Origin: Dehalococcoidia bacterium
GTDB taxonomy: Bacteria > Chloroflexota > Dehalococcoidia > Lucifugimonadales > Australimonadaceae
Direction: 5' to 3'
DNA length: 64,000 bases
Assembly: GCA_965219425.1 (NCBI GenBank)
Contig: OZ244741.1
Span: forward strand, 2,077,330 to 2,141,329
In this document: piece after piece, positions 3,293 through 20,902 of the stretch
How the letters are laid out: each line of letters opens with the position of its first letter
Numbering within the stretch: the stretch's first letter is position 1
The notes under the pieces: generated by a model
Told to the model about the DNA's origin: nothing
The model's database searches: none
The model's input: only the letters and a program-made list of their open reading frames with translations
Program-made: the position numbers and the translations under genes

Positions 3293-3693
3293 CCGCGACG
3301 ACACGGTCCAGGCCCCGCACCCTTCCCAGCACAACGACCAAGCTGCAAACGGAGATGGGCAGTCTTTTCGTCACCGTCTCCGTGGACGATGACGGCGAAC
3401 CCTTCGAGGTCTTCGGCTGGCTGGGCAAGGGAGGCAGCTTCCAGCACGGCGTCACCGAGCTGGCCTGCCGGTTGATCTCTCTGCACCTGCGGAGAGGCAC
3501 GCCGGTCGAGGAAATCATCGACCAGTGCCGGGGGATTCAGGAGATGCAGCCCTTCTGGAACACGATGCCCGACGGCAAGAGCGTGGCGATCCTCGGACTC
3601 GGCGACGGCATCGCCCACATCCTCAAGGCCCACCTGAAGGCCAGGGAGGAGCGACAGACGACGCAGGCGGAGGAAGTGCAGGCGGCCGCATGA
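3289..3693 (+). CDS. TSCPD-like domain protein (ribonucleotide-reductase-associated fold)
   Basis: LFVTVSVDDDGEPFEVFGWLGKGGSFQHGVTELACRLISLHLRRGTPVEEIIDQCRGI matches my recollection of the TSCPD domain core. ATGA overlap with the upstream gene. Confidence 0.65.
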   Translation: MTATTRSRPRTLPSTTTKLQTEMGSLFVTVSVDDDGEPFEVFGWLGKGGSFQHGVTELACRLISLHLRRGTPVEEIIDQCRGIQEMQPFWNTMPDGKSVAILGLGDGIAHILKAHLKAREERQTTQAEEVQAAA

Positions 3694-3716
3694 GCCGCAC
3701 GGACACCAGCATCGAG

Positions 3717-3747
3717 GCGGGGCTGCCTCCTTCGGGGGCGGCCCCGC
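3717..3747 (+). terminator. intergenic GC hairpin of the recurring family
   Basis: GCGGGGC / GCCCCGC arms, loop ends in GGGGG, followed by ttctcactt. Confidence 0.4.
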
Positions 3748-3776
3748 TTCTCACTTACAGGAAGGAGGCGACGACG

Positions 3777-4874
3777 ATGGTAACGACGACTACTGACAGG
3801 GCGGAGGTCTTCTCTCGCCCTGCGGCGCGGTTCGACGACGACGGCAACATGGAGGTGCGGGCCTCGTCAGCCCTGGGCTGCCGCCGCGCCCTCTGGTACG
3901 CCGCGACGGGCTACGAGGCCACGAATCCCCCCAGCGAGTCCTCGCTGACGGCGATGGAGGCGGGCAACGCCCTGGAGCCGGTGGTGGTGCGGGCGATGGA
4001 GCGGGCGGGCTGGAAGGTGGATGCCCCCGACCCCCAGGACCCGAAGCAGGTAGCGGTGCGGGTAGGCCCCAACATGATTGTGACCGGCCACCCCGACGGC
4101 ACGGTGCGGATGCCGGTGGAACCGGGCGAAGCGCCCCCTCAACTCTTCCTCTTCGAGGGAGAGCCCGATGCCCCAGTCTTCGGCGACCCGATGGTCGTCG
4201 AGATCAAGACGCGGGGACCGGAGGCGTTCAAGCGCTGGCAGACGCTGGGAGCGGAGCGCAGCCACCCGGCGGCGGTGGCCCAGGCCGCCCTCTACTCGCT
4301 CGGCGAGTTCGGCGACCTGCGGGACGCGGTGATCGCAACGATGGACACGGGGGCTCGCACCTGGGACTGGGAGCGGATTCCCGCCCACCGGCTGGAGAGG
4401 GCCTTGCAGGACGCCAGCGCGTGGCTCGGTGAGCTTGCCGCTCACCACGTCCGTAGCGGGCCTGACCCCGACGCGCTGCCGGAGCGGGACTTCTCCGCAA
4501 CCAGCTGGCAGTGCCGAAGCTGCCCCTTCCTGGCGGTCTGCCTGCCGGGAGCGGCTGAGGTCAGCGAGGACGCAGAGACCGAGACAGAGGAGGTGAGCGA
4601 CGAAGAGGCACGGGACGCGGTGGCGGCCTACGCAGAGGCTCAGGAGTCCATCAAGGAGCCGGAGAAGGCTAAGCGCGCTGCGCTGGACACCCTGAAGGCG
4701 TGGATGCGCCGCCAGGGTGACTCGAAGGCGACGGTGGGGGGCCGGACGGTCACCCTCGTCAGCTCCACCAGGTACTCCGTGAACCACCGGAGGCTCAACG
4801 AGGTCCTCGACCCGGAGGTCCGGGCCGAGATCGTCTCCGAGAGCGAGTCGGAGTACGTGCGGGTGAACACCTAG
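3777..4874 (+). CDS. PD-(D/E)XK exonuclease, Cas4/RecB-like with C-terminal Cys cluster
   Basis: VTGHPDG ... VVEIKTRG ... QAALYS nuclease-like core plus WQCRSCPFLAVC. ATG at 3777 after GGAAGGAGG. Sits between the annealase and SSB. Confidence 0.7.
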   Translation: MVTTTTDRAEVFSRPAARFDDDGNMEVRASSALGCRRALWYAATGYEATNPPSESSLTAMEAGNALEPVVVRAMERAGWKVDAPDPQDPKQVAVRVGPNMIVTGHPDGTVRMPVEPGEAPPQLFLFEGEPDAPVFGDPMVVEIKTRGPEAFKRWQTLGAERSHPAAVAQAALYSLGEFGDLRDAVIATMDTGARTWDWERIPAHRLERALQDASAWLGELAAHHVRSGPDPDALPERDFSATSWQCRSCPFLAVCLPGAAEVSEDAETETEEVSDEEARDAVAAYAEAQESIKEPEKAKRAALDTLKAWMRRQGDSKATVGGRTVTLVSSTRYSVNHRRLNEVLDPEVRAEIVSESESEYVRVNT

Positions 4875-7408: not shown

Positions 7409-8454
7409 GACTCGCTGCACAAGCCAAAGGGGGCTACTACCCGACTCCCGACCGGGTGGTGGACCTGATCGCCGAGCTGATCCACACCCCCTCCGGCTCC
7501 TACCACCGGGGCCGGGAAACCCTCCGCATCCTCGACCCCTGCTGCGGGGCCGGGGATGCGCTCCAGAGGCTGGCCGAGAACCTCGACCGGCCCAACTCGA
7601 TTTCCATCGAGACCTACGGCGTCGAGCTGCACCGGGACCGGGCGGAGGAGGCCGAGAAGGTGCTCCACCGCACCCTGGCCGCCGACCTCTTCGCAACGTC
7701 GATTGCGAACGGCGCCTTCGGCCTGCTGCTGCTCAACCCGCCCTATGACTATGACTCGGAGGACAAGCGGACGGAGCACGCCTTCCTGACCCAGACCACG
7801 CGCTACCTGGCCGAGAGCGGCCTGCTGGTCTTCATCGTTCCCAGGCAGCGCCTCGCGGTCTCGGCCCGGTATCTGTCCACCCACTACGGGCGGATGCGGT
7901 GCTGGGCGTTCCCCGACCCTGAGCGCGAGGTCTTCGACCAGGTGGCGCTCATGGGCTACCGGAAGGCCGACCCCGTTCCCGACGCCACAGCCGAGAGCAT
8001 GGTGCTGGAGTGGGCGGTGGGGGAGCCGGAGCCGCTGCGCTCCCAGCGCAACTCCTACTCCTACACGGAGTACAGCCCGGCCACCACGCCGAGCGGCGAC
8101 ATCCTGTTCACCACCCGCACCGTCGATCCGGTGGCGGCTGCAACGGAGGCCAGGCGGTCGGGGCTGTGGACCAGCACGGAGATCACCGACACCCTCTGGC
8201 CCGCGAACGACAACCGGACCCGCCCGCTGATGCCCCTCAGACGGGGGCACATGGCGATGCTGGTGGCAGCGGGCTTCCTGAACAACCTGGTGCTCGAAGC
8301 CGACGACAGGCGCATCCTGGTCAAGGGCCGCACCTCGAAGGACATGGTGCTGGTGGAGGACGCCCCGGAGAAGGAGGTCCACCGCGAGAAGCTGACGACC
8401 ACCGTGGTGGCCCTCGACCTCGACGACGGACGGATCGAGGACATCGCAGCTTAG
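7405..8454 (+). CDS. SAM-dependent DNA methyltransferase (NPPY, N6-adenine type), no cognate nuclease seen
   Basis: YYPTP ... ILDPCCGAGDAL (motif I) ... LLLLNPPYDY (motif IV). Confidence 0.8.
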   Translation: MRLAAQAKGGYYPTPDRVVDLIAELIHTPSGSYHRGRETLRILDPCCGAGDALQRLAENLDRPNSISIETYGVELHRDRAEEAEKVLHRTLAADLFATSIANGAFGLLLLNPPYDYDSEDKRTEHAFLTQTTRYLAESGLLVFIVPRQRLAVSARYLSTHYGRMRCWAFPDPEREVFDQVALMGYRKADPVPDATAESMVLEWAVGEPEPLRSQRNSYSYTEYSPATTPSGDILFTTRTVDPVAAATEARRSGLWTSTEITDTLWPANDNRTRPLMPLRRGHMAMLVAAGFLNNLVLEADDRRILVKGRTSKDMVLVEDAPEKEVHREKLTTTVVALDLDDGRIEDIAA

Positions 8455-8486
8455 ACGGCTCACGCCGAGCCGCGCAACGAGGCCCC
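8452..8486. repeat. about 35-bp direct repeat, copy 1 (starts at the methyltransferase stop codon)
   Basis: TAGACGGCTCACGCCGAGCCGCGCAACGAGGCCCC versus copy 2 at 8775. Confidence 0.7.
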
Positions 8487-8570
8487 GTTGGTTCATTCGA
8501 CCTGCGGGGCCTTCGCTCTATCGGAACGACGCGGAAGACCCCTCTTGCTGAGGAAAGGAGAGACAAGGAG

Positions 8571-8777
8571 ATGCAGACGACCATGACCCTCGACGCCTGC
8601 GCCCGGTGCGGGCAGCCCATCGCCCCCGGCGAACCGGACATGCAGACCGCCTTGGTGGACATCATCGGCGGGCGGGCCGTCTCCTCGCCGGTGAAGGCGT
8701 ACCACCTGAAGGGACGCTGCTACGACGAGTACAGGGCCGCTGAGACCGCCCGCAGGGAGGCCCTGAAAGGGGCCTAG
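8571..8777 (+). CDS. small hypothetical protein (CxxC, possible zinc-binding)
   Basis: 68-aa ORF after AAGGAG. Bracketed by the 35-bp direct repeats. Confidence 0.5.
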   Translation: MQTTMTLDACARCGQPIAPGEPDMQTALVDIIGGRAVSSPVKAYHLKGRCYDEYRAAETARREALKGA

Positions 8778-8809
8778 ACGGCTCACACCGAGCCGCATCA
8801 CGAAGCCCC
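8775..8809. repeat. about 35-bp direct repeat, copy 2 (starts at the small-ORF stop codon)
   Basis: TAGACGGCTCACACCGAGCCGCATCACGAAGCCCC. Confidence 0.7.
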
Positions 8810-8960
8810 CGCCAACTGCGCGGGTCTCGCACGTTCAAGCAACCGCCTGGGGACGTTTCCAGGGACCCGTCGCACGTAAACGTCCCCCACCTGGGGGCGT
8901 GGTGCGTCCAGGGTCCCGGCGTCGTCCTCCGGCCCACCACGGAAAAGGAGGACGACTCAC

Positions 8961-11303
8961 ATGAACCTCGGAGGTTTCATAGACACGTTCAAGGACGCCA
9001 TCGCCAGGAGGGTGGTGGAGTCCTACCCGCCGCTCTACCGGCCCTCGGAGAACGGCGGCACGCTCCCCAGGCTGCTCCGCAAGCCCCTGGGAGCGCAGGC
9101 CGACGCCATCAGGGGCGCGGCCCTATCGCTGAAGGCCCACCGGGGCACGACGGTAGTGGGCGAGATGGGCACCGGCAAGACCTTCATAGGAGCGGCCGCC
9201 GCATACATGGCGGGCTTCGAGCGGGTGCTCATCATCTGCCCGCCCCACCTGGTCCCCAAGTGGAAGCGGGAGGTGGAGATGACGGTGCCCGGCGTCCGCG
9301 CCGCCATCGTCGAGTCCATCACCGACCTGGAGCGGCTCCGCCTCTCCGTCGGCTCCGGCCCCCTCTTCGCGGTGATGAGCCGTGAGAAGGCCAAGCTGTC
9401 CTACCGCTGGATGCCCGCCGTGATACAGCGGTGGGCCGTCTCGAAGGGAAGGCTCCTGCGGGAGGAGGAGACGGGGGAGCCCTTCCGCATCCCCTGCTGT
9501 CCCGGCTGCACGGCGCAGATCGTGGACAAGGACGGCGTGCCCCTGACCGACGCCGACCTGAACCGCCGTAAGCACACCTGCGCCGGCTGCGGCGGCCCCC
9601 TCTGGCAGGCGGACAGGTCCGGCCCCGCCCGCTACCCGCTGGCCGACTACATCAAGCACCGGATGAAGGGCTTCTTCGACCTGCTTATCGGTGACGAGGT
9701 CCATGAGTTCAAGGGGCGAGGGAGCGCCCAGGGCATCGCCGCGGGCATCCTCGCCGACGTGTGCGGCAAGTCCCTCAGCCTCACCGGGACGCTCCTGGGA
9801 GGGTACTCCTCGACCATCTTCCACCTGCTCTACCGGTTCTCGCCGGAGATTCGCACGGAGTTCGGGCGGTCGGACGAGCACCGCTGGATACAGCGGTACG
9901 GCTTCGAGGAGGTCACCGTCGGCAAGCCCGACGACGACGCGGTGGAGGACGGGCGCAACAGCAGGAGGCGCAGCTACCGCAAGGTCACCAGGGAGAGGCC
10001 GGGACTCGTTCCCAGCGCCCTGTTCCACATCATCGGGAACACGGTGTTCCTGCGCCTCGCGGACGTTGCCTCCGGCCTGCCGGACTACGAGGAGAAGATC
10101 CTCGTGTCCTCGATGGACTCGGAGGAGGACGCCACGGGCTACTCCCAGCGCAGCGCCTACAACCACGTGTTCGAGGAGTTGAAGAAAGAGCTGACGAAGG
10201 CCCTCAAGAGCGGCTCCAAACGGCTGCTGGCGACCTACCTCCAGACCCTGTTGGCGTACCCCGACGGCTGCACCAGGGGAGAGACGGTGTTCGACCCTCG
10301 AACGGGCGATGTCATCGTCCAGGTCCCGCCCCTGTCCGAGGAGAAGCTCTACCCGAAGGAGAAGGCGCTCATCGACCTGGTGGCCGCCGAGCGGATGGAG
10401 GGACGGCGAGTGCTGGTCTACGTGACCCACACGGGGACGCGTGACATCACCGGGCGGATGGACGACTTCCTCACCCGGCACGGGTTCAGGGTGGCGGTGA
10501 TGAAGGCCGACGCGGTGGCCCCGAACCGCAGGGAGAAGTGGGTCGCCGACAAGGTGAACGAGGGCATAGATGTCCTCATCTGCCACCCCAGGTTGGTGCA
10601 GACCGGCCTCGACCTGATCGACTTCCCGACAATCGTCTGGGACGAAACGGATTACAGCGTTTATGTGGTCCGGCAGGCGTCGCGGCGGTCGTGGCGCATC
10701 GGGCAGACCCGCCCGGTGAAGGTGGTGTTCATGTCCTACCGGAACACGCTCCAGGCCGACGCGCTGAAGCTGGTGGCGAAGAAGATGCAGAGCTCCCTGG
10801 CCGTCGAGGGGGAGCTGCCGGAGGACGGGCTGGCCGCCTACGGCGACGACGGCGACGACATGATGATGGCGCTGGCCCGCAGGATCGTCAGCGGCGACGA
10901 GGAGGACACCGAGACGATGGAGGAGGTGTTCGCCCAGGCCAGGAATGCCGAGAGCGAGGCCGAGGAGCTGCTGGTGGACGACGGCTGGAAGGTCGTCGAG
11001 ATCGAGCCGGAAACGGTCTCGGTCAACGGGAATGGTAAGCACGCCAACGGCAACGGCCACCACGCCGACGGTATCGGGCCGACGGTCGAGCTTGTCCCGG
11101 CCAGCGGTCACGCCAACGGCAACGGAAACGGCCACCACGACGAGGCCCCGGAGCCGCAGCAGTCGCTGTTCTCCTGGGCGGAGTTCATGGCCGAGGAGCC
11201 GGTCAAGCCCAGGGGCCGCAAGACCCAGGCCCCGTCACTGTCCCTGTTCGCGTGGGCGGTGGAACAGGAGCGGGAGGAAGAGCCGGTCGGCGCAGGACGC
11301 TAG
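8961..11303 (+). CDS. SNF2/DEAD-like superfamily-2 helicase with zinc-ribbon insert
   Basis: GEMGTGKT (Walker A), GDEVHEFKG (DExH), QASRRSWRIGQTRPVKV (motif VI), CCPGC...CAGCG insert. NGNG(H/K)HA low-complexity tail. Confidence 0.85.
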   Translation: MNLGGFIDTFKDAIARRVVESYPPLYRPSENGGTLPRLLRKPLGAQADAIRGAALSLKAHRGTTVVGEMGTGKTFIGAAAAYMAGFERVLIICPPHLVPKWKREVEMTVPGVRAAIVESITDLERLRLSVGSGPLFAVMSREKAKLSYRWMPAVIQRWAVSKGRLLREEETGEPFRIPCCPGCTAQIVDKDGVPLTDADLNRRKHTCAGCGGPLWQADRSGPARYPLADYIKHRMKGFFDLLIGDEVHEFKGRGSAQGIAAGILADVCGKSLSLTGTLLGGYSSTIFHLLYRFSPEIRTEFGRSDEHRWIQRYGFEEVTVGKPDDDAVEDGRNSRRRSYRKVTRERPGLVPSALFHIIGNTVFLRLADVASGLPDYEEKILVSSMDSEEDATGYSQRSAYNHVFEELKKELTKALKSGSKRLLATYLQTLLAYPDGCTRGETVFDPRTGDVIVQVPPLSEEKLYPKEKALIDLVAAERMEGRRVLVYVTHTGTRDITGRMDDFLTRHGFRVAVMKADAVAPNRREKWVADKVNEGIDVLICHPRLVQTGLDLIDFPTIVWDETDYSVYVVRQASRRSWRIGQTRPVKVVFMSYRNTLQADALKLVAKKMQSSLAVEGELPEDGLAAYGDDGDDMMMALARRIVSGDEEDTETMEEVFAQARNAESEAEELLVDDGWKVVEIEPETVSVNGNGKHANGNGHHADGIGPTVELVPASGHANGNGNGHHDEAPEPQQSLFSWAEFMAEEPVKPRGRKTQAPSLSLFAWAVEQEREEEPVGAGR

Positions 11304-11400: not shown

Positions 11401-11607
11401 ATGGCACGCATCTTTGTCTACGACGACCGCGAGTTCCCAGACCCCGACCCCCAGATGAGCGTCGACCAGGTCAAGGCCACGCTCTCCGATTTCTACGGGG
11501 AGATCGCCAACGCCTCGGTGAAGGAGACCAAGCGGGGCGACGACACCATCTACGAGTTCCAGCGGCGGGTGGGCACCAAGGGGGCCTGCACCCACGCAAG
11601 GAGCTAG
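11401..11607 (+). CDS. PRTRC system protein C-like ubiquitin-like (beta-grasp) protein
   Basis: About 68 aa. FPDPDPQMSVDQVKATLSDFYGEI...IYEFQRRVGTKG matches my recollection of the PRTRC_C consensus ending GTKG. Here it is followed by 7 extra residues. Confidence 0.75.
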   Translation: MARIFVYDDREFPDPDPQMSVDQVKATLSDFYGEIANASVKETKRGDDTIYEFQRRVGTKGACTHARS

Positions 11608-11620
11608 GGGAGGGAGTCCG

Positions 11621-11851
11621 ATGGACAACCGGATATTCACCGGCCTGCTGGCGGCGACCCCGCCTGCGGGCCTCAGCATCCTGGAGCTCACGGCGGAGCT
11701 CACACGGCCCGACGGCTCCTTCGACCTGGACGCCGCGGCCGCACGGCAGAAGGACGTGGAGATGGCCTGCACCCAGGCCCAGGACTACGCCTCGGCAACG
11801 GGGCGGCTACTGGAGGCGCTGCGATGGCAACTGCGGCCCCGGCGCAACTGA
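11621..11851 (+). CDS. hypothetical protein
   Basis: 76-aa ORF after GGGGAGGGAG, within the cassette. Confidence 0.4.
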   Translation: MDNRIFTGLLAATPPAGLSILELTAELTRPDGSFDLDAAAARQKDVEMACTQAQDYASATGRLLEALRWQLRPRRN

Positions 11852-12672
11852 GCGGCCTGGCGAACCTGCTCCTGCGGCGTCCGCCGTCGCTGCGGGAGCT
11901 GGTCACGCTGGTCGGATACGCCGACGACTACGCATGGTTCGTGGGGCTGGTGCGCCGCCTCTTCCCCCAGGAGGCGGAGGCGGCGCTGGCGGCCCCCGAC
12001 GTACGCGGGAGGGTGGAGCGCTTCGCCGGGCTCTTCGGGGAGCGGCACTTCCCCCTCTACGCGCCGTTCATCGAGTTCTGGACGGAGGAGGAGGAGGGGG
12101 AACAACCTCCGTGGTCATGGCTGAGGCAGGGCATCCCCTTCGACCTGATGGGCTTCGGCTACGACGGCCTCCACGAGATGTGGGACGGCTACCGCGAGGG
12201 ACTCTCGGCCATGGCCCTGCTGGTCAAGCCCGCCGACGCCTACTACGACGGACCCGACGGGATACGGGTGGCCTGGCTGGAGTCAGCCGCCGAACGCATC
12301 CCGCAAGAGACCCTGCTCCGAATCCCCGAAGGCGGAATACCCCTGGACGACCTCACCGACGCGCTGAAGGAGACCCGTTTCGAGGGGGCGGCGCAAGCCT
12401 GCTCCTGGGTCATGGCCGAGACCGGCAACTTCTTCCTCGACCACACCTATGAGGACGGATCGTACGACGGCTTCTCCGACCCTTGGGACGACGACATCAT
12501 CCAGGAAGGGACGGAGGAGTGGCGCAAGGCCAGCGCCCTCATGGACGCGGTGTGCAAGCTGGGCGACTGGCTGGAGGAGGACCTACCCGGCCGCTTCGCC
12601 GAGATGCTGGACTTCGTCCTGGGGCGGCTCCCCAATCACAAACAAGAACAGGAGGTAAGTGATGACGAGTGA
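11824..12672 (+). CDS. hypothetical acidic protein (possibly PRTRC protein F-like)
   Basis: 282-aa ORF between the Ubl and E2-like genes. Assignment by position only. Confidence 0.45.
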   Translation: MATAAPAQLSGLANLLLRRPPSLRELVTLVGYADDYAWFVGLVRRLFPQEAEAALAAPDVRGRVERFAGLFGERHFPLYAPFIEFWTEEEEGEQPPWSWLRQGIPFDLMGFGYDGLHEMWDGYREGLSAMALLVKPADAYYDGPDGIRVAWLESAAERIPQETLLRIPEGGIPLDDLTDALKETRFEGAAQACSWVMAETGNFFLDHTYEDGSYDGFSDPWDDDIIQEGTEEWRKASALMDAVCKLGDWLEEDLPGRFAEMLDFVLGRLPNHKQEQEVSDDE

Positions 12673-13366
12673 TGCCGAAAATACCGAGTGGTCCCTGCCG
12701 GGTCCGGCGGACGCGGCAAGGGACGAGCTCCAGATGCAACTGGAGGTCTACAAGGAGACCATCCTGCTGCGGGGCTTCGAGAGCGACTCAAACTGGGTGA
12801 GGACCGTCTCGGCGGACGCCATCGCCAACGTATTCACCCAGCACTTGGGGTTCTCCTCGGGGCTGCTGCCCCAGGAGGCCCTCTGGTGGAACCAGGGCGA
12901 GACCGGGCAGGTGGTGGCCCTCTGGCGGCCGCCGCAGGTCTGGTCCGTGGCCCTGCAACGGGAGGCGTTCAAGCCCCCCGCACGGCTCCGGCTTCCCATG
13001 CCGGGGCTGGTCTTCGTCTGCTCGCCGGGCCGTGCGCCCTGGGCCTACGCGGCGCTTGGCCGGCCCACTGACCCCGAGCATCTCCTCTTTCGGGCCCCCG
13101 CCTTCAACGTCTTCAGGGACGGTCGGGTCTGCCCCGGAAGCCACAGGTTCCCCGAGGAGGTGGACCTGATACCGGAAGGCTTCTTCCAGTCCTTCTTCTC
13201 CCTTACCGGAGACACCCGGGACCGCTCGAAGAAGCACCCCGACAACCTGCAAGCACTATGGGAGGAGCTCGATGGAACAACTGTATACCCGACTGAGGAC
13301 CTGGTTCCCCAGTGCACGGTGGGCCAGGCGATGGCGGTCTCCGAGGGGAGACGGGGCTACCGCTAG
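12659..13366 (+). CDS. PRTRC system protein B-like, E2-like
   Basis: Size and position fit PRTRC_B. PAFNVFRDGRVCPGSH resembles the E2 HPN..G.(I/V)C catalytic loop. Confidence 0.65.
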   Translation: MMTSDAENTEWSLPGPADAARDELQMQLEVYKETILLRGFESDSNWVRTVSADAIANVFTQHLGFSSGLLPQEALWWNQGETGQVVALWRPPQVWSVALQREAFKPPARLRLPMPGLVFVCSPGRAPWAYAALGRPTDPEHLLFRAPAFNVFRDGRVCPGSHRFPEEVDLIPEGFFQSFFSLTGDTRDRSKKHPDNLQALWEELDGTTVYPTEDLVPQCTVGQAMAVSEGRRGYR

Positions 13367-13382
13367 CCCCCCGCCGGGGCCG

Positions 13383-14045
13383 GTGGGCTACCTGGTCAAC
13401 CACCCCGCCGGACTCTCCGGCTCACAGGGCATCGGGTTCGACTACGTGCTCGGATCGGGCGGTCTCTACGTCCAGTCCGAGAGCGCCCACCTGACGGCGC
13501 GAGCGCAGGTCGCATCCTGCGAGGTACGGGGCCTGGCTCCCGTGACCGAGAAGGTGGAGCTTGCCCACGGCCCCATCCCGTCCCGGCTCTTCGAGTTTGG
13601 CCTGCGCTGGTTCCAGGACGACTTCGGCACCGAGCGGTTCTTCGCCGTGCGGTGGGACGGGCGAGCCTACCGGCTGGTGGTTCCCGAACAGGAAGGGACG
13701 GCTTCGTCCCTCACCTACACGCCGCCCGCCGGGGTGGTCGCCGAGTTCCACTCCCACGGAAGCTCCCGCGCCTTCTTCTCGAAGACCGACGACGGCGACG
13801 AGCAGGGCTTCCGCATCTACGGCGTCGTGGGACGCCTCGACAGCGACCGGCCCAAGCTGAGCCTGCGGGTCGGCGTCTACGGCCACTTCGCCCCGGTGGA
13901 GTGGCCCCAGGTGTTCGACGGCCCAGTTCCGGGCGTCCGGCTGACGGGCGAAGAGCCGGATTCAAACGAGGCAAGAGAAAAGGAGGTGACTGAGAAATGC
14001 CCTACTACCTGGACAACGCATTCCTGCTCGACAACCCCTGGATAA
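13383..14045 (+). CDS. PRTRC system protein A-like JAB/MPN peptidase
   Basis: AEFHSHGSSRAFFSKTDDGDE is a JAMM H-x-H...S..D motif. GTG start chosen after the upstream stop (uncertain). Confidence 0.7.
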   Translation: MGYLVNHPAGLSGSQGIGFDYVLGSGGLYVQSESAHLTARAQVASCEVRGLAPVTEKVELAHGPIPSRLFEFGLRWFQDDFGTERFFAVRWDGRAYRLVVPEQEGTASSLTYTPPAGVVAEFHSHGSSRAFFSKTDDGDEQGFRIYGVVGRLDSDRPKLSLRVGVYGHFAPVEWPQVFDGPVPGVRLTGEEPDSNEAREKEVTEKCPTTWTTHSCSTTPG

Positions 14046-14812
14046 CGGTGGTCGGCTGCGGCGGGACCGGCGGCTTCGTCGCCGAGGGTCTCTGCCGACT
14101 CTTCCAGGGACGGGAGGCCACCATCGTCCTGGTCGACCACGACCGGGTGGAGCCCCACAACCTGCTGCGCCAGAACTTCTACGCCGAGGACGTGGGGAAG
14201 TTCAAAAGCCAGGCTCTCGCCGACCGGCTGGCAAAAGCGTACCGGCGTCCCGTCGGCTACTCGGTGTACGCCTTCCGGGAAGAGGACTCCCGCTCGGATG
14301 GGGGCCGCTATCCCGGCCTTCCCCACTACGGGAACAGCCTCATCATCGGCTGCGCCGACAACGCCGCAGCTCGCAGGGCGATGGCGGAGTCCCTGCCGGG
14401 CGACCCGCGCCGGTGGCTCATCGACGCGGGCAACGACACCAACTGGGGGCAGGTACTTATAGGCAACGTCGCCGACCGGGACTTTGGGGACGAACAAGCC
14501 TTCGTCGACCAGACCTGCTACCTGCTCCCCGCGCCTACGGTGCAGCGGCCCGACCTGCTGACCGCCGTGTCGACCACGCCTCCCGACGTGGACTGCGCGG
14601 CGGCCCTCGACCTCACCGACCAGGACCCGACCATCAACCAGATGATGGCGTCGCTGGCGCTACAGGTGGTCCGCCGCATGGTGGCGGGCTCCTGCCCCTT
14701 CATGGGCCTCTACCTGGACATGGAGCAGGGCACGGTCACCCCCACGTATGCCACCCCGGAGACGGTGGCGCGGGTGGTGCGGTCTGGCTCCGAGCCGGGG
14801 ATAGCGTCCTAG
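13997..14812 (+). CDS. PRTRC ThiF-family E1-like adenylyltransferase
   Basis: VVGCGGTGGFVAEGL...LVDHDRVEPHNLLRQNFYAEDVGKFKSQALADRL is the ThiF/MoeB/E1 Rossmann signature. Confidence 0.85.
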   Translation: MPYYLDNAFLLDNPWITVVGCGGTGGFVAEGLCRLFQGREATIVLVDHDRVEPHNLLRQNFYAEDVGKFKSQALADRLAKAYRRPVGYSVYAFREEDSRSDGGRYPGLPHYGNSLIIGCADNAAARRAMAESLPGDPRRWLIDAGNDTNWGQVLIGNVADRDFGDEQAFVDQTCYLLPAPTVQRPDLLTAVSTTPPDVDCAAALDLTDQDPTINQMMASLALQVVRRMVAGSCPFMGLYLDMEQGTVTPTYATPETVARVVRSGSEPGIAS

Positions 14813-14861
14813 TGACCAACGCTCAACAGACGCATTCAAAGACGGAAATAAGGAGAAAACC

Positions 14862-15245
14862 ATGCCTAACGAAAAGGGAACCACCACGATCTGGCAGGAC
14901 AACCACAGCGGGCCTCGCAGGCACAAGCTGATGACCAAAGAGCTTGCTGACACCATCCCGCCCCTGTACGCCAATGACGGCGCGGACGACCCCGACGCCG
15001 TGGTCGCCAGGGTGAAGCTCTTCTCGCCTTACAACGGCTGGCGCTGGTACGTCACCGAGTGGGACGCCGAGACCGGAACGTGCTTCGGCCTGGTGGAGGG
15101 GTTCGAAGTGGAACTTGGATACTTCGACCTCACCGAGCTGGCGGAAGTCACCGTGTTCGGCGGCGTCCCCGCCGTGGAGCGCGACCTGTACTGGGAGCCG
15201 CAGACCCTCGGCGAGATCAGGAGACAGTCGAGGCTCGCAGCCTGA
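14862..15245 (+). CDS. DUF2958-like protein (common on conjugative elements)
   Basis: KLFSPYNGWRWYVTEWDAETGTCFGLVEGFEVELGYFDLTELAEV...ERDLYWEPQTLGEI fits the DUF2958 pattern as I recall it. Confidence 0.7.
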   Translation: MPNEKGTTTIWQDNHSGPRRHKLMTKELADTIPPLYANDGADDPDAVVARVKLFSPYNGWRWYVTEWDAETGTCFGLVEGFEVELGYFDLTELAEVTVFGGVPAVERDLYWEPQTLGEIRRQSRLAA

Positions 15246-15281
15246 GCAAGGGCCAGAGAAGAAACAACGAAAGGAGCAACC

Positions 15282-15779
15282 ATGCCAGACGAAGTTGGAA
15301 CGGAAGCAACCCGCTCGGACGCCCCGAGCGCAGACGACAGTCTCTTCGGTGAAGCGGCGGACGACACGGAAGCCGCGGTTGCCGACGAGCAGGACGCCAA
15401 CGAGGAGACCGCACAGGACGCACAGGGTTCCGACGACGCCGGAGAGCAGGACGCTGGGGACGACACCGGCGCGTCCGAGGACCTGAAGGTCGTCGTGTCC
15501 ATCAAGGGAGGCAGGGCCACCATCGGGGTGCAACAGCCCTCGTCGGACCCGCACATCGAGATCTTCGACGACCACGACCTGGCCGGACTGGCGCAGGAGG
15601 TCCTAGCGGTGAGCGAGAGAGCCAAAGCCAGGTGGGAAGACACACCCAAATTCCCGGCGCACGAGAAACCCGCTCCCCCGGCTAGGCGTCGGAACCGCAG
15701 CGGGCAGGGAACGGCGCAGGCTGAGGCTGCCGAGGGTGAGACGGAGCAGCAGCAACCCGAGACGCTGAGGTTGTTCTAG
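15282..15779 (+). CDS. acidic hypothetical protein (possibly PRTRC protein E-like)
   Basis: 165 aa with a highly acidic N-terminal half. Positional assignment only. Confidence 0.45.
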   Translation: MPDEVGTEATRSDAPSADDSLFGEAADDTEAAVADEQDANEETAQDAQGSDDAGEQDAGDDTGASEDLKVVVSIKGGRATIGVQQPSSDPHIEIFDDHDLAGLAQEVLAVSERAKARWEDTPKFPAHEKPAPPARRRNRSGQGTAQAEAAEGETEQQQPETLRLF

Positions 15780-15793
15780 GGCTCGGCGCATAC

Positions 15794-15828
15794 GGGGGGA
15801 GGACACCGCGATGTGATGTCCTCCCCCC
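15794..15828 (+). terminator. strong GC hairpin after the acidic-protein gene
   Basis: GGGGGGAGGACA (15794-15805) pairs with TGTCCTCCCCCC (15817-15828). Confidence 0.55.
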
Positions 15829-15836
15829 GCCATTCA

Positions 15837-15904
15837 ATGTATGCGGCCCTTTTTGCGTTTCGGGCCGCTTTCGCGCCCATGTATGCGGGCCTTTTGCATT
15901 TCGG
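15837..15904 (+). repeat. two copies of a 26-27 nt iteron-like motif
   Basis: ATGTATGCGGCCCTTTTTGCGTTTCGG (15837-15863) and ATGTATGCGGGCCTTTTGCATTTCGG (15879-15904). Confidence 0.7.
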
Positions 15905-16267: not shown

Positions 16268-16286
16268 GAGAGCAGCCCGTTCGCCC

Positions 16287-16312
16287 ATATGTGCGCCCTT
16301 TTTGCATTTCAG
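16287..16312 (+). repeat. third copy of the iteron-like motif
   Basis: ATATGTGCGCCCTTTTTGCATTTCAG. Confidence 0.6.
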
Positions 16313-16349: not shown

Positions 16350-16595
16350 TCAGCCGGTGAACAGGTGACCGAGGTCCAGGTCGTCTGCCAGGTCCTGAAG
16401 CGCCTTCAGATGCCGATAGTTGGGACGCACTCCTCGCTGCCACCAACGCCTTACGGTGACGGGATCGACGCCGAGACGACGGGCGATCTCCACCCATGAC
16501 AGACCGGACGCGTGCTTGAACCACACCAGCCGCTGCGGGAAGTCGTCTGGGAAGCCGTGGGACTTTGTCCTGTACTGTGTGCGCTGTCTCGGCAT
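16350..16595 (-). CDS. helix-turn-helix DNA-binding protein
   Basis: GLSWVEIARRLGVDPVTVRRWWQRG is a typical HTH. Internal ATG (MPRQRT...) of the 16350..16727 ORF. Confidence 0.6.
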   Translation of the reverse strand: MPRQRTQYRTKSHGFPDDFPQRLVWFKHASGLSWVEIARRLGVDPVTVRRWWQRGVRPNYRHLKALQDLADDLDLGHLFTG

Positions 16596-16742
16596 GGACG
16601 CCGGTCCTTGCCACGGAAAGCCGCAATCCACTCTGCGATGGGGTGTCCGGGCCGTCAGCCGCGCAGTGCGTAAGCAAGCCCGCCGTCCCGCCCCCGCAGC
16701 TTGGGCGCATCCATGTCGGGAGGCCATCTCCCTCTCCCGGCG

Positions 16743-16769
16743 ATGTATGCGGCCTTTCTTGTTGTCAGG
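16743..16769 (+). repeat. fourth, more diverged copy of the iteron-like motif
   Basis: ATGTATGCGGCCTTTCTTGTTGTCAGG. Confidence 0.5.
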
Positions 16770-17890: not shown

Positions 17891-18712
17891 CTACATGCCC
17901 GACACGCAGGTAGTGCCGGGTCCCTCGATGTCCACCTCGGCTACCGGGTCCCGGCCAAGGACATACCCCTCCCCGGCCAGCACCTCCCACGTGAGGGTGC
18001 AGACGGGGTTGTTGCTCTCGTCCACTTCGGAGGCCCAGTGGAAGTTCGAGAAGAATTCCTTCCCGGCGGGGAACGTGCGCGTCTTGGTTTCTCCGCCTTG
18101 CACATAGCTCAGGGTGAAGCTCAGCGACTCGTCCGCATTCCCGATGCGGCTGAACTCGAACTCCACGGTGTCCTTGTACTCCGCCTCAATGCCGTTCGCG
18201 TAGACGTTGACCATCGGCAGGGCGGTGATCTTCACGTCAACCTCGTCGTTGTCCGCCCACCCGAACGACGGAAAGAGAAACCACTCGTACGTGTGGCCAT
18301 AGGTGGGATCATTCGCATAGGTGGCATCCTCGAAGCTGAACGTCTGCCCGCCGATGTGAAGGGTCATGGCCCTCACCTCGCCGTCATTGGCCTGCCTGTT
18401 ACCAAATCCCACATAGAGTTGACTGCTAATAATCCGGTCATAGATCAGGGATACCTCGAAAGTGTGTCTCCCCAGAATGAAGCTATCGTCTGAGAGGGAC
18501 CCGATGCCCACTCCCTCAGACGTGTACCCCTTGCTGATGATGAAACTCCCCACCGTCATGGTCGAGGACCAGATCTCCTCTCCGTCATCCGAGCTCTGCG
18601 CCGACGCAGGCGAGCCCACGGCCAGCAGGGCCGCGACGACCGCCAGCGCCGCTAGGGCCAGCGCTACGGCGGAGCGGATGCCGAACTCCGGTATGAGGTT
18701 TTGCATTGTCAT
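17891..18712 (-). CDS. secreted protein, tandem paralog 1 (unknown family)
   Basis: MTMQN...LLAVGSPASAQ signal peptide. Conserved C-terminus EGPGTTC(V/M)xxM shared with the next two genes. Confidence 0.7.
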   Translation of the reverse strand: MTMQNLIPEFGIRSAVALALAALAVVAALLAVGSPASAQSSDDGEEIWSSTMTVGSFIISKGYTSEGVGIGSLSDDSFILGRHTFEVSLIYDRIISSQLYVGFGNRQANDGEVRAMTLHIGGQTFSFEDATYANDPTYGHTYEWFLFPSFGWADNDEVDVKITALPMVNVYANGIEAEYKDTVEFEFSRIGNADESLSFTLSYVQGGETKTRTFPAGKEFFSNFHWASEVDESNNPVCTLTWEVLAGEGYVLGRDPVAEVDIEGPGTTCVSGM

Positions 18713-18758
18713 TGCGGTTGGATTCGTCCTCCGGCCAGGGGCCTGAGCGGCGCCGGGG

Positions 18759-19625
18759 CTACATGGTTCCCATGCAGGTCGTGCCGGGGCCTTCGACAAG
18801 CGCGAAAGCCGGGTTTAAGTTAAGGATGTACCCGGGGACGGGGGAGAGTATCTCCCACGTGATGAGGCAGACCGGGTTGTTGCTCTCGTCCACGTCAACG
18901 GCCCAGTGGGCATTGAAGAATTCCGATTGCCCGGCCTTGAACGTGCGGGTGGCGGTCTCTCCGCTCTGGACATGCTTGAAGGAGAAGGTCAGCGCCTCGT
19001 CCGTGTTCCCGGTGCGGGTGAACCAGAATATCGCGGTCGACTCGGCGGCATTGTTGTTTCCGCCGTATTCCACGATTTGACCGCTCGCGGCAAACCCCCC
19101 CTCGACGCTGATGGACTTCTTCTCGGTGATCTTCAGGGCTACCGTGTCGCTTGTCGCCCAGCCGAAGCGCGGGGTGAGCGGCCAACTGTAGACGTCGCTA
19201 AAGGTGCTATCAAACGAATAGGTTGCATCATTGAAATCGAACGTCCGCCCGTCGACGTGAAGCGTCCAGGTCAGCTCTTCGTCGGAGTTAAGCTGCTCGT
19301 TGATTGCAAAAATCAGCGTGCCGGCGGAGGTGCCGATGGTAGCAGAGGAGTCGAGGACTAAGGTTACCAACTCATTTCCAGTATCCAGGGGGACCCTACC
19401 GTCGGAGAGCGAACCTATTCCACCATTGTTTGGATGTCTGAACCCCTGGCCGATGGGAAAGGACCCCGTCGTCATCGTCGCGGACCAGATCTCTTTGTCG
19501 TCCGAGCTCTGCGCCGAGGCCGGCGAGCCCACGGCCAGCAGGGCCGCGATGACCACCGCGGCCACCGCCGCCAGCACGACCGCCCAGCGGATTCCGAACC
19601 TTGGGACTGCATTTCTGACTGTCAT
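18759..19625 (-). CDS. secreted protein, tandem paralog 2
   Basis: MTVRN...LLAVGSPASAQ. GIGSLSD, DATY, RFGW, GETATRTF, NNPVC and EGPGTTCMGTM are shared with the paralogs. Confidence 0.7.
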   Translation of the reverse strand: MTVRNAVPRFGIRWAVVLAAVAAVVIAALLAVGSPASAQSSDDKEIWSATMTTGSFPIGQGFRHPNNGGIGSLSDGRVPLDTGNELVTLVLDSSATIGTSAGTLIFAINEQLNSDEELTWTLHVDGRTFDFNDATYSFDSTFSDVYSWPLTPRFGWATSDTVALKITEKKSISVEGGFAASGQIVEYGGNNNAAESTAIFWFTRTGNTDEALTFSFKHVQSGETATRTFKAGQSEFFNAHWAVDVDESNNPVCLITWEILSPVPGYILNLNPAFALVEGPGTTCMGTM

Positions 19626-19677: not shown

Positions 19678-20529
19678 CTACATGCTCGACATGCAGGTCG
19701 TGCCCGGGCCTTCGACGGCCACCGTCGCAGAAGCTGGAGTGCCCAGGACGTAATCGCTCCCAGTACGCAATTGCCAAAAGATGAGGCAGAGCGGAGCATC
19801 GTTGTTGTCCAGGTCAACGGCCCAGTGGAAGTTGCTGAAACTCGATACCCCGGCTTTGAACGTGCGCGTAGCGGTCTCTCCGCCGAATATGTTGCCGTTA
19901 GTCACCCGGAAGCTCAGCGCGTTGTCCGTGCTGCCGTAGCGGGTGAACTTGAACTCCGCGGTCGACTCGGCGGCGTTGTTGTTTCCGCCGTATTCCACCG
20001 TGGCCGTGACCGCCTCGATGATGACGACCGGCTTAGCGGTGATCTTCACGGAAACCCTGTCGTTGTCCGACCAGCCGAAGCGCGGGGAAAGAGTCCATGT
20101 GTAAACGTGGCCATAGGTGGAATCAGTCGCATAGGTGGCGTCAGCGAGGTCAAAAATGCGTGTCCGCGCGAGGAGAAGCTGCAAGGACTCCAGCTCGTTG
20201 TCATCGAGCTTTCTGTCCAATGCAAGAAGCAGTTGGCCACCGTGAGCAGAGGAGTCAAGGATTAGGGTTATGGTGAAGTTGTTTGGACCCGAACTGAATT
20301 CGTCCTCGGAGAGGGACCCAACTCCACCTAACTCAGGTGTGTACCCTTTGCCGATAGGGAAGTTCCCTACCGTCATCGTCGCGTCGTAGACCTCTGTTGC
20401 CGTCAGCAGTGATTGCGCCGAGGCCGGCGAGCCCACTGAGAGCAGGGCCGCGATCACCACCGCGGCCGCCACCGCCAGCGCCGCCACAGTTCTCATCCCG
20501 AATCCCGGTAGGAAGTTTCGTATTGTCAT
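19678..20529 (-). CDS. secreted protein, tandem paralog 3
   Basis: MTIRN...LLSVGSPASAQ with the same conserved blocks. Ends EGPGTTCMSSM. Confidence 0.7.
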   Translation of the reverse strand: MTIRNFLPGFGMRTVAALAVAAAVVIAALLSVGSPASAQSLLTATEVYDATMTVGNFPIGKGYTPELGGVGSLSEDEFSSGPNNFTITLILDSSAHGGQLLLALDRKLDDNELESLQLLLARTRIFDLADATYATDSTYGHVYTWTLSPRFGWSDNDRVSVKITAKPVVIIEAVTATVEYGGNNNAAESTAEFKFTRYGSTDNALSFRVTNGNIFGGETATRTFKAGVSSFSNFHWAVDLDNNDAPLCLIFWQLRTGSDYVLGTPASATVAVEGPGTTCMSSM

Positions 20530-20902
20530 TGCGAGCACCTCATTCTCTTTCGCTGGTTGGGGGCGGCTAAAGACGCTGGAGTGGCCCGATACGTCCCGCT
20601 GGGGGACGCGGTCCGGTCGGGGAGGCGGCCGTTTGAGGAGCCTGGACTTGCCGGCAGGCCCGAGAGCGGGCCGTCCGGCGCAGGCAGCTCTCTAACCAGC
20701 GTAAGCGACGCAGCGACGGCGGGTTCCATTGCCCCGTCCGCCGCCTCAATTGAATGGACCGTTCTGTCGAACCCGAATCCCATACAAATACCCCCCTGCT
20801 CCTGTCGGCAGGCCGTTCCATGTCATTCTACAGGGACCGTGTAAGATGACTGTTAGAAAAATGGCGAATTGGCATGATATTGGTGTAAGATACGGCCCAA
20901 AG

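Follow-up and report, generated by a model that had tools for sequence, protein, structure and literature searches.

A divergent PRTRC-like cassette for putative ubiquitin-like protein conjugation in an integrative conjugative element of uncultured Dehalococcoidia

An integrative conjugative element (ICE) of uncultured Dehalococcoidia (Chloroflexota) carries a tightly packed single operon of eight genes that would encode a working ubiquitin-like protein (Ubl) conjugation cascade, one that we think, with slightly better than even confidence, serves replication, establishment or maintenance of the element's DNA rather than phage defence. In the 64,000-nucleotide stretch of DNA analysed here (the window), this cassette occupies positions 11401-15779 of the + strand in the order Ubl, X1 (76 aa), X2 (282 aa), E2-like protein, JAB, ThiF-type E1, DUF2958 protein and acidic protein, with all genes on one strand, gaps of at most 50 nt or overlaps between them, and good Shine-Dalgarno sites before Ubl and X1. 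The eight open reading frames named in the original prediction are all present where it had placed them, and Pfam and TIGRFAM matches together with motifs support the Ubl, E2, JAB and E1 roles. The evidence far exceeds what chance would produce, since the block recurs in the same order in 84 related loci with nearly invariant catalytic residues and dN/dS of 0.16-0.37 across the eight genes.

The Ubl (11401..11607, +; 68 aa), preceded by the ribosome-binding site AAGGAG, is a beta-grasp protein of the Prok_Ub family (PF14454, E 2e-15) that also passes the curated cutoff of TIGR03738 PRTRC_C (47.7 bits against 45.95). It ends in RRVGTKG(61) followed by the seven-residue tail ACTHARS, and both profiles stop near Gly61. 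K60 and G61 are invariant (81/81 copies), and the Ubl, with a dN/dS of 0.16, is probably a precursor that needs its tail removed, because every copy has 2-11 residues past the Lys-Gly pair that vary in both length and sequence. The Ubl of pMOL28 is likewise tailed past KG, while those of EbN1, pQBR103 and D. gobiensis stop at the glycine; in Bub and Bil, JAB is documented to mature the Ubl (PMC11601596).

Three enzymes are predicted to act on this precursor. The E2-like protein (Prok-E2_D, PF14460 E 3e-17; 12659..13366, +) probably starts at ATG 12662, since its relatives are 234 aa long. Its predicted catalytic Cys158 is retained in 83/84 copies and His162 in 84/84; P-A-F-N150 stands in place of the classical HPN motif, with the Asn in 84/84 copies and the His absent. 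The JAB/JAMM metallopeptidase (13383..14045, +), which bears an N-terminal JAB-N domain, matches PF14464 weakly and has the HxHx7SxxD motif exactly. Its JAMM motif is complete, with E84 in 83/83 copies and H123-S-H125-x7-S133-x2-D136 in 82/83, and the JAB-N domain keeps Arg49 in 81/83 copies and Trp91 in 83/83. The E1-like adenylating enzyme (13997..14812, +; 271 aa) consists of a single ThiF domain (PF00899, E 7e-14) with rhodanese and UFD domains absent. G-C-G-G-T-G-G, Arg58, Asp121 and Cys200 (PDVDC200AAALD) are invariant in 80-82 copies, and the E1s of pMOL28, Deinococcus and Chlorohelix have a cysteine at the position matching Cys200.

The original prediction listed X1 and X2 as two unknown genes and placed an acidic protein last; all three are conserved parts of the cassette, kept even in relatives at 25-47% identity. 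X1 (11621..11851, +), with the N-terminus MDN..L..LL..VP and a strong ribosome-binding site, is intact in 78/84 loci (dN/dS 0.32) and has no match in Pfam, NCBIfam or PADLOC; the distant cassettes L176, L178 and L179 encode, between Ubl and X2, a protein of 76-79 aa that shares this N-terminal motif. The all-helical X2 (11824..12672, +) sits where 6d operons have their 'novel alpha-helical protein' and PRTRC loci have PRTRC_F, and its family comprises 512 representative clusters in a 50%-identity library. An AF2 model from a 45-sequence alignment (pLDDT 90.4, pTM 0.85) is helical throughout and has no fold match in the PDB (best E 2.2, TM <=0.15) or in BFVD. The X2 profile matches the protein just upstream of E2 in Chlorohelix (probability 92.8) and Anabaena (70.6) and does not match PRTRC_F of pMOL28; conversely, TIGR03742 matches 0/45 members of the X2 family.

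Downstream of E1 comes the DUF2958 protein (14862..15245, +; 127 aa; PF11171, E 2e-9), which has no relative of solved structure. Almost every Dehalococcoidia copy has it (dN/dS 0.21), but it is missing from the distant cassettes L175-L179, a distribution that marks its insertion between E1 and the acidic protein as lineage-specific. The acidic protein (15282..15779, +; 165 aa), to which no family is assigned, has a conserved DxSLFG at its N-terminus, continues through an acidic linker, a small beta-beta-beta-alpha domain and a basic/Pro-rich linker, and ends in an invariant LRLF-COOH, with L162, L164 and F165 invariant across 74-76 copies. Its homologues lie right after E1 in L177, L178 and L179 and one gene further downstream in L175, and those of the distant cassettes terminate in PQLF, LNLF, PRLF or PRLL. 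PRTRC_E and Anabaena h1 share this kind of layout and end in SSLL, ASLL, ALNF, TLLF or QLTLF, with homology unproven by profile comparison. Fourteen nucleotides past the acidic-gene stop lies a perfect 13-bp inverted repeat (CGGGGGGAGGACA / TGTCCTCCCCCCG; 11-nt loop; 15793..15829) that is possibly an operon-end stem-loop and may act as a terminator; no T-run follows it. Many alignments between copies stop at 15777-15789, and the 3' end of the operon is flanked by a conserved gene for an HTH regulator and by a ~25-nt repeat that occurs four times.

The four enzymes are intact in 60/84 loci. A crude length criterion flags one or more disrupted genes in roughly half of the loci, which, with frequent insertions of IS elements, indicates that many copies are decaying. 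A single chromosome can carry as many as four copies of the element, diverged to 83-87% identity. A seven-gene core, Ubl-X1-X2-E2-JAB-E1-acidic protein, is common to distant relatives, and hundreds of natural copies now indicate which parts of the cassette are essential.

The nearest relatives of the locus all come from Dehalococcoidia or Chloroflexota metagenome-assembled genomes, in agreement with the high-GC, non-proteobacterial genome that had been proposed. Of the earlier 'phage/ICE-like' description the conjugative half stands: TrbL/VirB6 and T4SS-pilin genes adjoin the primase in near-identical copies of the element. A phage identity was dropped in view of these conjugation genes and of the lack of close relatives in IMG/VR. 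Family scans of the upstream open reading frames bear out the predicted setting among ssb, radC, methylase and helicase genes, with a DnaG-type primase, a Rad52/22 annealing protein, SSB, RadC, a DUF6094 methyltransferase and a SNF2-like helicase (8961..11303, +; Pfam ResIII and Helicase_C). The C-terminal tail of the helicase, QQSLFSWAEF ... SLSLF(A/E)WAVEQ, has motifs conserved across copies and travels with the cassette; mini-elements without the helicase keep the tail as a 200-aa open reading frame directly upstream of Ubl. About 70 loci share the fixed order methylase, helicase, cassette, DUF2958 and acidic protein, which, along with the T4SS genes beside the primase, argues that the cassette is conserved element backbone and not variable cargo. 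These context genes are at most a candidate 'leading region', as neither oriT nor a relaxase was found.

Guilt by association ties the cassette to DNA transactions across phyla. Its neighbours are an exonuclease and dnaN in pQBR103; PrimPol, dnaN, Pol III gamma/tau and a DNA polymerase in the Anabaena plasmid; UvrD, NucS and HU in D. gobiensis; and an N6-methylase and ParB in pMOL28. In the large contigs L175 and L176 ThyX lies nearby, as does an NAD-dependent DNA ligase in L175. Some minimal elements consist of little beyond an integrase and the cassette: those in L001, L016, L052 and L078 are of the serine-recombinase type, and the one in L179 has a tyrosine integrase and lies within an ABC-transporter operon. 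Their existence indicates that the cassette is independent of T4SS and leading-region genes.

Gene content, catalytic residues, the precursor tail, purifying selection and synteny are observed directly, and from them we infer the following biochemical steps, target and biological role. JAB would trim the short tail of the Ubl precursor to expose Gly61, which the ThiF-type E1 would adenylate before the Ubl is loaded on Cys200. From there the Ubl would pass to Cys158 of E2 and be joined to a lysine of one or more targets, with X2 serving as an adaptor or substrate receptor, a part that X1 and the acidic protein may share; JAB may also undo the mark. The targets are probably replication, recombination or DNA-processing proteins of the element or its host, modified during establishment or maintenance. 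An entry or establishment role, rather than host defence, would fit the synteny, as the original prediction had suggested; because the small elements persist without establishment neighbours, maintenance or addiction would fit at least as well as entry.

Addiction is indeed the core of the strongest alternative, which overlaps the favoured explanation in that both benefit the element: E1/E2 and JAB would oppose each other on an element or host protein, either making loss of the element harmful or controlling its excision and copy number. Such a role was proposed for mobile E1/E2/JAB clusters (PMC1779556), and it accords with the persistence of minimal elements and with the HTH regulator gene and repeats at the operon's 3' end. 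However, no toxin-like component was recognised, and many copies have disrupted cassette genes with the element not evidently lost, which speaks against strong addiction; we regard either variant as unlikely. Somewhat less probable still is a Bil-like defence against phages or other invaders, in which the Ubl tag would disable a structural or replication protein of the invader. Mobile elements frequently bear defence systems, Bil is an E3-less defence system with the same four roles (PMC11601596), and competition between elements is plausible where several diverged copies share a chromosome. Yet the cassette is fixed in a conserved backbone, co-oriented with replication and recombination genes and outside any variable cargo island; its neighbours across phyla are replication rather than defence genes; its E1 is unlike the tandem BilD; and PADLOC models match no cassette protein beyond the Rossmann part of E1, in a version (2.0, 2023) that may lack models for this class. 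Very improbable is a scheme with no protein conjugation at all, in which E1 would adenylate the Ubl so that sulfur could be transferred or a peptide modified, as with ThiS/MoaD or MccB. In its favour, E1 is a minimal ThiF/MoeB-type domain whose best solved relative by sequence is MccB (Rossmann part only). Against it, a JAB peptidase and an E2-fold protein whose Cys is conserved are co-encoded every time, the rhodanese domain and nearby sulfur or cofactor genes are absent, and the Ubl falls in Prok_Ub, not in the ThiS or MoaD families.

Compared with characterized systems, the cassette favoured here as a conjugation pathway for the element shares with BilABCD the Ubl, E2, JAB and E1, the lack of an E3 and, by prediction here, maturation of a Ubl precursor by JAB (PMC11601596), and its conserved cysteines lead us to expect the same thioester chemistry. 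In contrast, BilD is a tandem IAD-AAD-CYS protein (PMC11601596), whereas the E1 here has a single domain of 271 aa; there is no sequence-family match, and the setting is an element backbone rather than a defence island. Bub (6E / DUF6527) is likewise a bacterial Ubl/E1/E2 pathway of mobile elements with peptidase processing, but it forms Ser/Tyr oxyesters without catalytic cysteines, uses the DUF6527 serine protease BubE and has fused Ubl-E2 or E2-E1 proteins (PMC11601596); here the proteins are separate, E1 and E2 have conserved cysteines and DUF6527 is absent.

By its Pfam families (Prok_Ub PF14454, Prok-E2_D PF14460) the cassette belongs, as a divergent clade, to the '6d' class of Ubl operons predicted by Iyer, Burroughs and Aravind in 2006 (Genome Biol 7:R60; PMC1779556). 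Shared with that description (PMC1779556) are a small Ubl whose C-terminal Gly is conserved and a helical protein lying between Ubl and E2. In both, the E2 conserves its Cys, lacks the HPN His and has a His on the downstream side of that Cys; the JAB carries a JAB-N domain in which Arg and Trp are conserved; the E1 lacks rhodanese; and the distribution across mobile elements is patchy. The present clade differs in adding X1, the post-E1 acidic protein and, in Dehalococcoidia, DUF2958, and in residing in Chloroflexota ICEs, which are missing from the 2006 taxon list (PMC1779556).

The top-scoring named families for all four enzymes are those of PRTRC (TIGR03734-TIGR03742; pMOL28, Aromatoleum EbN1 plasmid 1, pQBR103), for which, as anticipated, we found no experimental study in the searchable literature. 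'Complete PRTRC-type', the label given earlier, holds for the nearest families (C, B, A and ThiF) and not for completeness. The Ubl alone scores above its curated cutoff; E2 (TIGR03737, 66.8 bits against 131), JAB (TIGR03735, 59.6 bits, E 3e-16, against 101.8) and E1 (TIGR03736, 106.5 bits, E 1e-30, against 144.75) reach 46-74% of theirs. PRTRC D, E and F were not detected, nor was ParB, whose predicted absence from the window held in tblastn and phmmer searches with three PRTRC ParB proteins and in Pfam and NCBIfam scans of the window's other large open reading frames. These scores make the cassette a divergent sister clade of the TIGRFAM PRTRC set rather than a member in the strict sense. 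The two share the core order C, helical protein, B, A and ThiF, methylase and replication genes as neighbours, and, in pMOL28, the Ubl tail; they differ in the 25-35% identity of A, B and ThiF (29-35% for E2 against plasmid PRTRC_B and E2_D proteins), in the acidic protein, which precedes Ubl in PRTRC and follows E1 here, and in X2, which lacks detectable similarity to PRTRC_F. Among annotated plasmid cassettes directly compared, the closest is that of Ca. Chlorohelix allophototropha (E1 32%, JAB 35% and E2 29% identical), which, like Anabaena cylindrica pANACY.02, has an X2-family protein directly upstream of E2. Anabaena also shares an acidic protein (ending QLTLF) and nearby replication genes, but its acidic protein precedes a Ubl that carries an 81-residue extension in place of a separate X1 (similarity to X1 merely suggestive, E 0.037), and cyanobacterial and Chloroflexia plasmid cassettes, unlike those of Dehalococcoidia, are without DUF2958.

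Eight ORFs lie tightly packed on the + strand at 11401-15779, spaced by no more than 50 nt and with three gene pairs overlapping, and clear Shine-Dalgarno sequences precede the first two, those of Ubl and X1. The ubiquitin-like protein (Ubl, 68 aa) matches Pfam Prok_Ub (PF14454, E 2e-15) and passes the PRTRC_C model TIGR03738 with 47.7 bits against a cutoff of 45.95. It is followed by X1 (76 aa) and X2 (282 aa), by an E2-like protein of 235 aa (Prok-E2_D PF14460, E 3e-17; TIGR03737, 66.8 bits against a cutoff of 131.45), by a 220-aa JAB protein (TIGR03735, 59.6 bits against 101.8) and by a 271-aa E1 consisting of a ThiF domain only (TIGR03736, 106.5 bits against 144.75), whose gene overlaps the end of the JAB gene. 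A DUF2958 protein (127 aa, assigned by profile match) and an acidic protein (165 aa) complete the series. Pfam and NCBIfam profile searches place X1, X2 and the acidic protein in no family, the NCBIfam searches for these three extending to E <= 10, and the uncharacterized ORFs upstream have no NCBIfam match either. A promoter and terminator scan yielded no signal above shuffles.

Upstream on the same strand lie genes for a DnaG-type primase, a Rad52/22 annealing protein, DUF7007, a TSCPD protein, SSB, RadC, a DUF6094 methyltransferase and an SNF2-like helicase. The original prediction of a Ubl/E2/JAB/E1 cassette in this interval is thus borne out by the ORFs, the profile matches and the upstream context. 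The single-strand annealing protein (1798-2691) belongs to the Rad52/22 family, more usual in phages, and the stand-alone TSCPD protein (3181-3693) is a relative of the C-terminal region of B12-dependent ribonucleotide reductase.

We place the cassette at the right end of a putative integrative conjugative element, the left part of which extends beyond the window, because type IV secretion system (T4SS) genes lie upstream of the primase and shared homology stops at ~16.6-16.8 kb, with host genes beyond. In copies 92.7-95.6% identical to the window, TrbL/VirB6-like genes are found 3-4.5 kb upstream of the primase; one of these near-identical copies also carries a T4SS-pilin gene, and a more distant copy (L124) carries TrbL- and PrgI-like genes. 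The left part of the element is reconstructed from these 92.7-95.6%-identical copies, the relaxase, coupling protein, integrase and left end lying outside the window and the loci examined. Past the right end are sensor and regulator genes and IS elements, and ordinary chromosome begins at about 35 kb (MetRS, RadA, ClpC-like, S1, PriA). The phage context also entertained in the original prediction does not hold, as the E2 has no close relatives in IMG/VR and T4SS genes adjoin in the near-identical copies.

Several further features surround this boundary. A ~25-29-nt motif, ATGTATGCGGSCCTTTTTGCRTTTC, occurs in four intergenic copies at the right end of the element (15832-15860, 15874-15902, 16282-16310 and 16738-16766), flanking orf115 and a minus-strand HTH gene (16350-16727); these copies may be operator or end-repeat sites. 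Just beyond the element, three tandem paralogues of ~290-300 aa are encoded on the - strand (17891-18799, 18759-19625 and 19678-20538), with signal-peptide-like N-termini and a common C-terminal GPGTTCM; the one that was scanned has no Pfam family. The stretch at 24000-35000 has a lower GC content, 52-54% in parts compared with ~67% elsewhere, and carries a Mu/rve-type transposase gene (27919-29592, - strand); this stretch probably represents a second insertion with no relation to the element.

The cassette is widespread and its position is fixed in the element's backbone rather than being that of variable cargo. The E2 has >1000 database relatives, 259 of them in a scan of species-representative genomes, and the best 80 of these 259 all come from MAGs of Dehalococcoidia or Chloroflexota, whose replicons span roughly 2-4.3 Mb. 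Single chromosomes harbour at least four copies of the element (loci L008, L013, L016 and L053 on OZ244718.1; L017, L065, L067 and L072 on OZ244792.1). The cassette regions of such co-resident copies are only 83-87% identical to one another, and the copies are diverged lineages residing together, not recent duplications.

Mini-elements were also observed (~5100-13600 in L001 and L008; L016; L052; L078; ~5800-14300 in L179). In four loci a large serine recombinase and a YhcG-like gene are immediately followed by a 200-aa helicase-tail ORF and then by the cassette; the L001 mini-element is bordered by host fn3 genes, and in L179 an element of ~9 kb (tyrosine integrase, DUF3846, cassette) sits inside an ABC-transporter operon. 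Loci with cassettes at ~86% identity share a mini-element recombinase at 98% identity, and the elements are therefore mosaic. Since mini-elements comprise little beyond an integrase and the cassette, the latter can be regarded as a self-sufficient module.

Residues expected of a conjugation cascade are conserved across the 84 related loci. The Ubl retains K60-G61 in 81/81 copies; the E2 retains C158 in 83/84 and both H162 and N150 in 84/84, with P-A-F-N150 in place of HPN. In the JAB protein the HxHx7SxxD motif is intact (E84 in 83/83; H123, H125, S133 and D136 in 82/83), and the JAB-N residues R49 (81/83) and W91 (83/83) align by eye with the VRGLP and W of the Chlorohelix, Anabaena and pMOL28 JAB proteins. 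The E1 P-loop, R58, D121 and C200 are invariant (80-82 of 80-82 copies). All eight genes are under purifying selection (dN/dS 0.16-0.37), and, judged by a crude criterion of gene length, 60/84 loci keep the four enzymes intact and 43/84 keep all eight genes, the remaining loci being disrupted by frameshifts or IS insertions. On this sequence evidence it is highly probable that the cassette is a functional cascade, the rival here being a non-conjugating chemistry. Ubl Gly61, E1 Cys200, E2 Cys158 and His162, and JAB Glu84, His123, His125, Ser133 and Asp136 are the residues we propose for mutation.

Every Ubl copy continues past Gly61 with a tail of 2-11 residues of variable sequence. The pMOL28 Ubl has such a tail too, and three other PRTRC Ubls stop at the glycine. 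JAB-mediated maturation of a Ubl precursor has been shown experimentally for Bub and Bil (PMC11601596), and by this analogy the tail points to the Ubl being a precursor that would be matured by the JAB protein.

The partner proteins are conserved beyond the close relatives. In five contigs with X2 relatives at 25-47% identity, the order is Prok_Ub, an X1-like protein of 76-79 aa, X2, E2_D, JAB and ThiF, the exceptions being one contig in which a TnpB fusion replaces X1 and one without a called JAB gene. A homologue of the acidic protein follows E1 in 4/5 of these distant contigs, and the DUF2958 gene is absent from all five. Because Ubl, X1, X2, E2, JAB, E1 and the acidic protein are common to distant relatives and DUF2958 is not, the conserved core comprises seven genes. 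In the distant cassette L175 (349-kb contig, 8001-10025), the X2 homologue is called as a 674-aa fusion with a TnpB-like (Cas12f1-like TNB) part, which is probably an IS insertion.

X2 belongs to a large family (512 clusters at 50% identity), and its profile matches proteins encoded directly upstream of E2 in Chlorohelix and Anabaena plasmids. An AF2 model built from a diverse alignment of 45 sequences is all-helical with a pLDDT of 90.4; the diverse alignment was needed, a shallow one of 26 sequences (>=79% identity) giving a pLDDT of only 39.5. The model has no fold match in PDB or BFVD. The best-conserved residues are chiefly aromatic, proline and glycine, together with His117 and a TGN-FLD motif, and because of this prevalence an adaptor looks more likely than an enzyme. 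Identity with PRTRC_F was considered and set aside: hhalign against the pMOL28 F protein gave a probability of 0.1, with low power since the template was a single sequence, and TIGR03742 matched none of 45 family members or of the positional equivalents from four plasmids.

In the Anabaena cylindrica plasmid pANACY.02 (L111, 6623-7057) the Ubl is annotated as 144 aa, with a KKAGTKG end followed by an 81-residue extension, possibly an X1-related fusion partner that can be cleaved off. Evidence that X1 is the detached form of this extension is only suggestive: the comparison gave E 0.44, improving to 0.037 when the profile was made more diverse, against 0.7 for a reversed control. Sequence searches with E2, JAB and DUF2958 found no solved relatives, and the match of DUF2958 to AcrIF4 was insignificant (E 0.2).

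Common to the acidic proteins are a small beta-beta-beta-alpha domain, as judged by sequence inspection, a basic linker and an L-F motif at the extreme C-terminus, with endings LRLF, LNLF, PQLF, PRLF and PRLL. PRTRC_E proteins and the Anabaena protein have the same layout and end in SSLL, ASLL, ALNF, TLLF and QLTLF. Equating the acidic protein with PRTRC_E gains no significant support from profile comparison (probability 0.1-0.2), the likeness being limited to layout and C-terminal motif. Near its N-terminus the acidic protein also has a conserved DxSLFG (15333-15350). The C-terminal tail of the helicase (~11160-11300, residues ~734-780) contains conserved QQSLFSWAEF and SLSLFAWAVEQ, in which two SLF-x-WA motifs flank a Lys/Arg-rich stretch; mini-elements without the helicase keep this tail as a separate 200-aa ORF. 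These SLF motifs look like short linear interaction motifs.

Cassette neighbourhoods suggest where the system may act. Replication, repair or nucleotide-metabolism genes stand consistently beside the cassette across phyla: an exonuclease and dnaN on pQBR103; PrimPol, dnaN, Pol III gamma/tau and a DNA polymerase on the Anabaena plasmid; UvrD, NucS and HU in Deinococcus gobiensis; and a methylase and ParB on pMOL28. Among the distant cassettes, both L175 (349 kb; 1-4518) and L176 (638 kb; 633-1991) have ThyX close by, and L175 has an NAD-dependent DNA ligase as well. The primase, annealing protein, SSB, RadC, methylase and helicase of the window follow the same pattern. SSBs, orphan methylases and anti-defence genes abound in the leading regions of conjugative plasmids (PMC11541004); that work is silent on the cassette, and the oriT of the present element was not located. 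We lean modestly towards a working Ubl cascade that would benefit the element through DNA-replication or establishment proteins; the role considered separately, benefit through such proteins, is given slightly less than an even chance.

The cassette may also serve in maintenance, in keeping with the existence of small elements made of an integrase and the cassette. Rival roles are defence and addiction; PADLOC matches were confined to the Rossmann part of the E1 (residues ~10-80), through CBASS Cap2/E1-E2 models. A more specific version of the replication reading is a replisome-directed Ubl system. The beta sliding clamp-binding motif is QL[SD]LF, and the acidic protein and PRTRC_E-like proteins might dock on the clamp, or on another replication hub, through their invariant extreme C-terminal x-L-x-L-F motif, which is QL[SD]LF-like. 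SLF motifs of a similar kind are those in the helicase tail and at the N-terminus of the acidic protein. Such docking would place E2~Ubl at the fork, allowing proteins bound to the clamp, or replication proteins of the element, to be tagged. We consider this improbable; if true, it would be a mobile-element-encoded bacterial counterpart of PCNA ubiquitination or SUMOylation, used for takeover or protection of the incoming element's replication.

The broader reading, action through replication or establishment proteins, is of interest in that such modification would give mobile elements a new means to control cell entry or residence. The seven genes, including X2 with its confident model, provide a minimal conserved parts list, and the recurring link with replication genes and the conserved C-terminal peptide motif suggest where to seek the target. 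In the literature searched we found no functional study of PRTRC, Prok-E2, DUF2958 or plasmid ubiquitination, and PRTRC is misdescribed in recent genome papers, one recent preprint calling it a 'pilus retraction' system.

Bacterial operons of E1, E2, JAB and Ubl are prokaryotic relatives of eukaryotic ubiquitination, and experimental work on type II CBASS/Pycsar/MBL, Bil and Bub dates from about 2020 onwards. The cassette differs from type II CBASS, Bil and Bub, by the defining features in PMC11601596. Its E1, a single 271-aa ThiF domain, sets it apart from Bil (BilABCD), which shields its host from phage by marking a phage structural protein. Bub is marked by the DUF6527 serine protease BubE, by Cys-less E1 and E2 with oxyester chemistry and by fused Ubl-E2 or E2-E1; here all proteins are separate, and the cassette is not Bub because the catalytic cysteines of E1 and E2 are present and DUF6527 is absent. 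Type II CBASS has a fused E2-E1 (Cap2) and a JAB (Cap3) beside a CD-NTase and an effector, whereas the neighbourhood of the cassette contains neither CD-NTase nor effector.

The closest correspondence is with the 6d operon type defined by Iyer, Burroughs and Aravind in 2006 (PMC1779556), which combines a small Ubl with a C-terminal glycine and a helical protein that diverges fast. Its E2-like protein has the Cys and, further towards the C-terminus, a conserved His, but lacks the HPN His; conserved Arg and Trp mark the JAB-N domain of its JAB; and its E1 has no rhodanese domain. Each of these features has its counterpart here: a small beta-grasp Ubl with G61 in front of the variable tail; C158, P-A-F-N150 and H162 in the E2; R49 and W91 in JAB-N; and a rhodanese-free E1 adjoining JAB. 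The helical protein between Ubl and E2 corresponds to X2, which occupies this position in all relatives compared, a match of place and all-helical model with no homology to the original 6d/PRTRC_F proteins demonstrated (for PRTRC_F, by profile comparison and TIGR03742 search).

Within this class, the TIGRFAM PRTRC set forms the proteobacterial core, with the gene order ParB-E-C-F-B-A-ThiF in pMOL28 and Aromatoleum EbN1; proteins A and F are not listed in the pQBR103 record. The cassette had been described as a complete PRTRC-type system, of which the Ubl assignment stands (TIGR03738). Proteins A, B and ThiF fall under the curated cutoffs (TIGR03735-03737; identity 25-35%), D, E and F (TIGR03739, 03741 and 03742) are not detectable, and the predicted lack of ParB (TIGR03734) was confirmed by three PRTRC ParB queries of the window with tblastn and phmmer and by Pfam/NCBIfam scans of flanking ORFs. 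With three of the four enzymes short of the cutoffs and ParB, D, E and F undetected, we assign the cassette, from profile evidence, to a divergent clade of the 6d class rather than to PRTRC itself. The 6d/PRTRC kind was predicted in 2006, has been known bioinformatically for twenty years and is widespread on plasmids and ICEs; new relative to it are the ParB-less clade on putative ICEs of Chloroflexota, the core of seven genes, the X2 model without known fold relative, the universal Ubl tail in the lineage and the C-terminal motif of the acidic protein.
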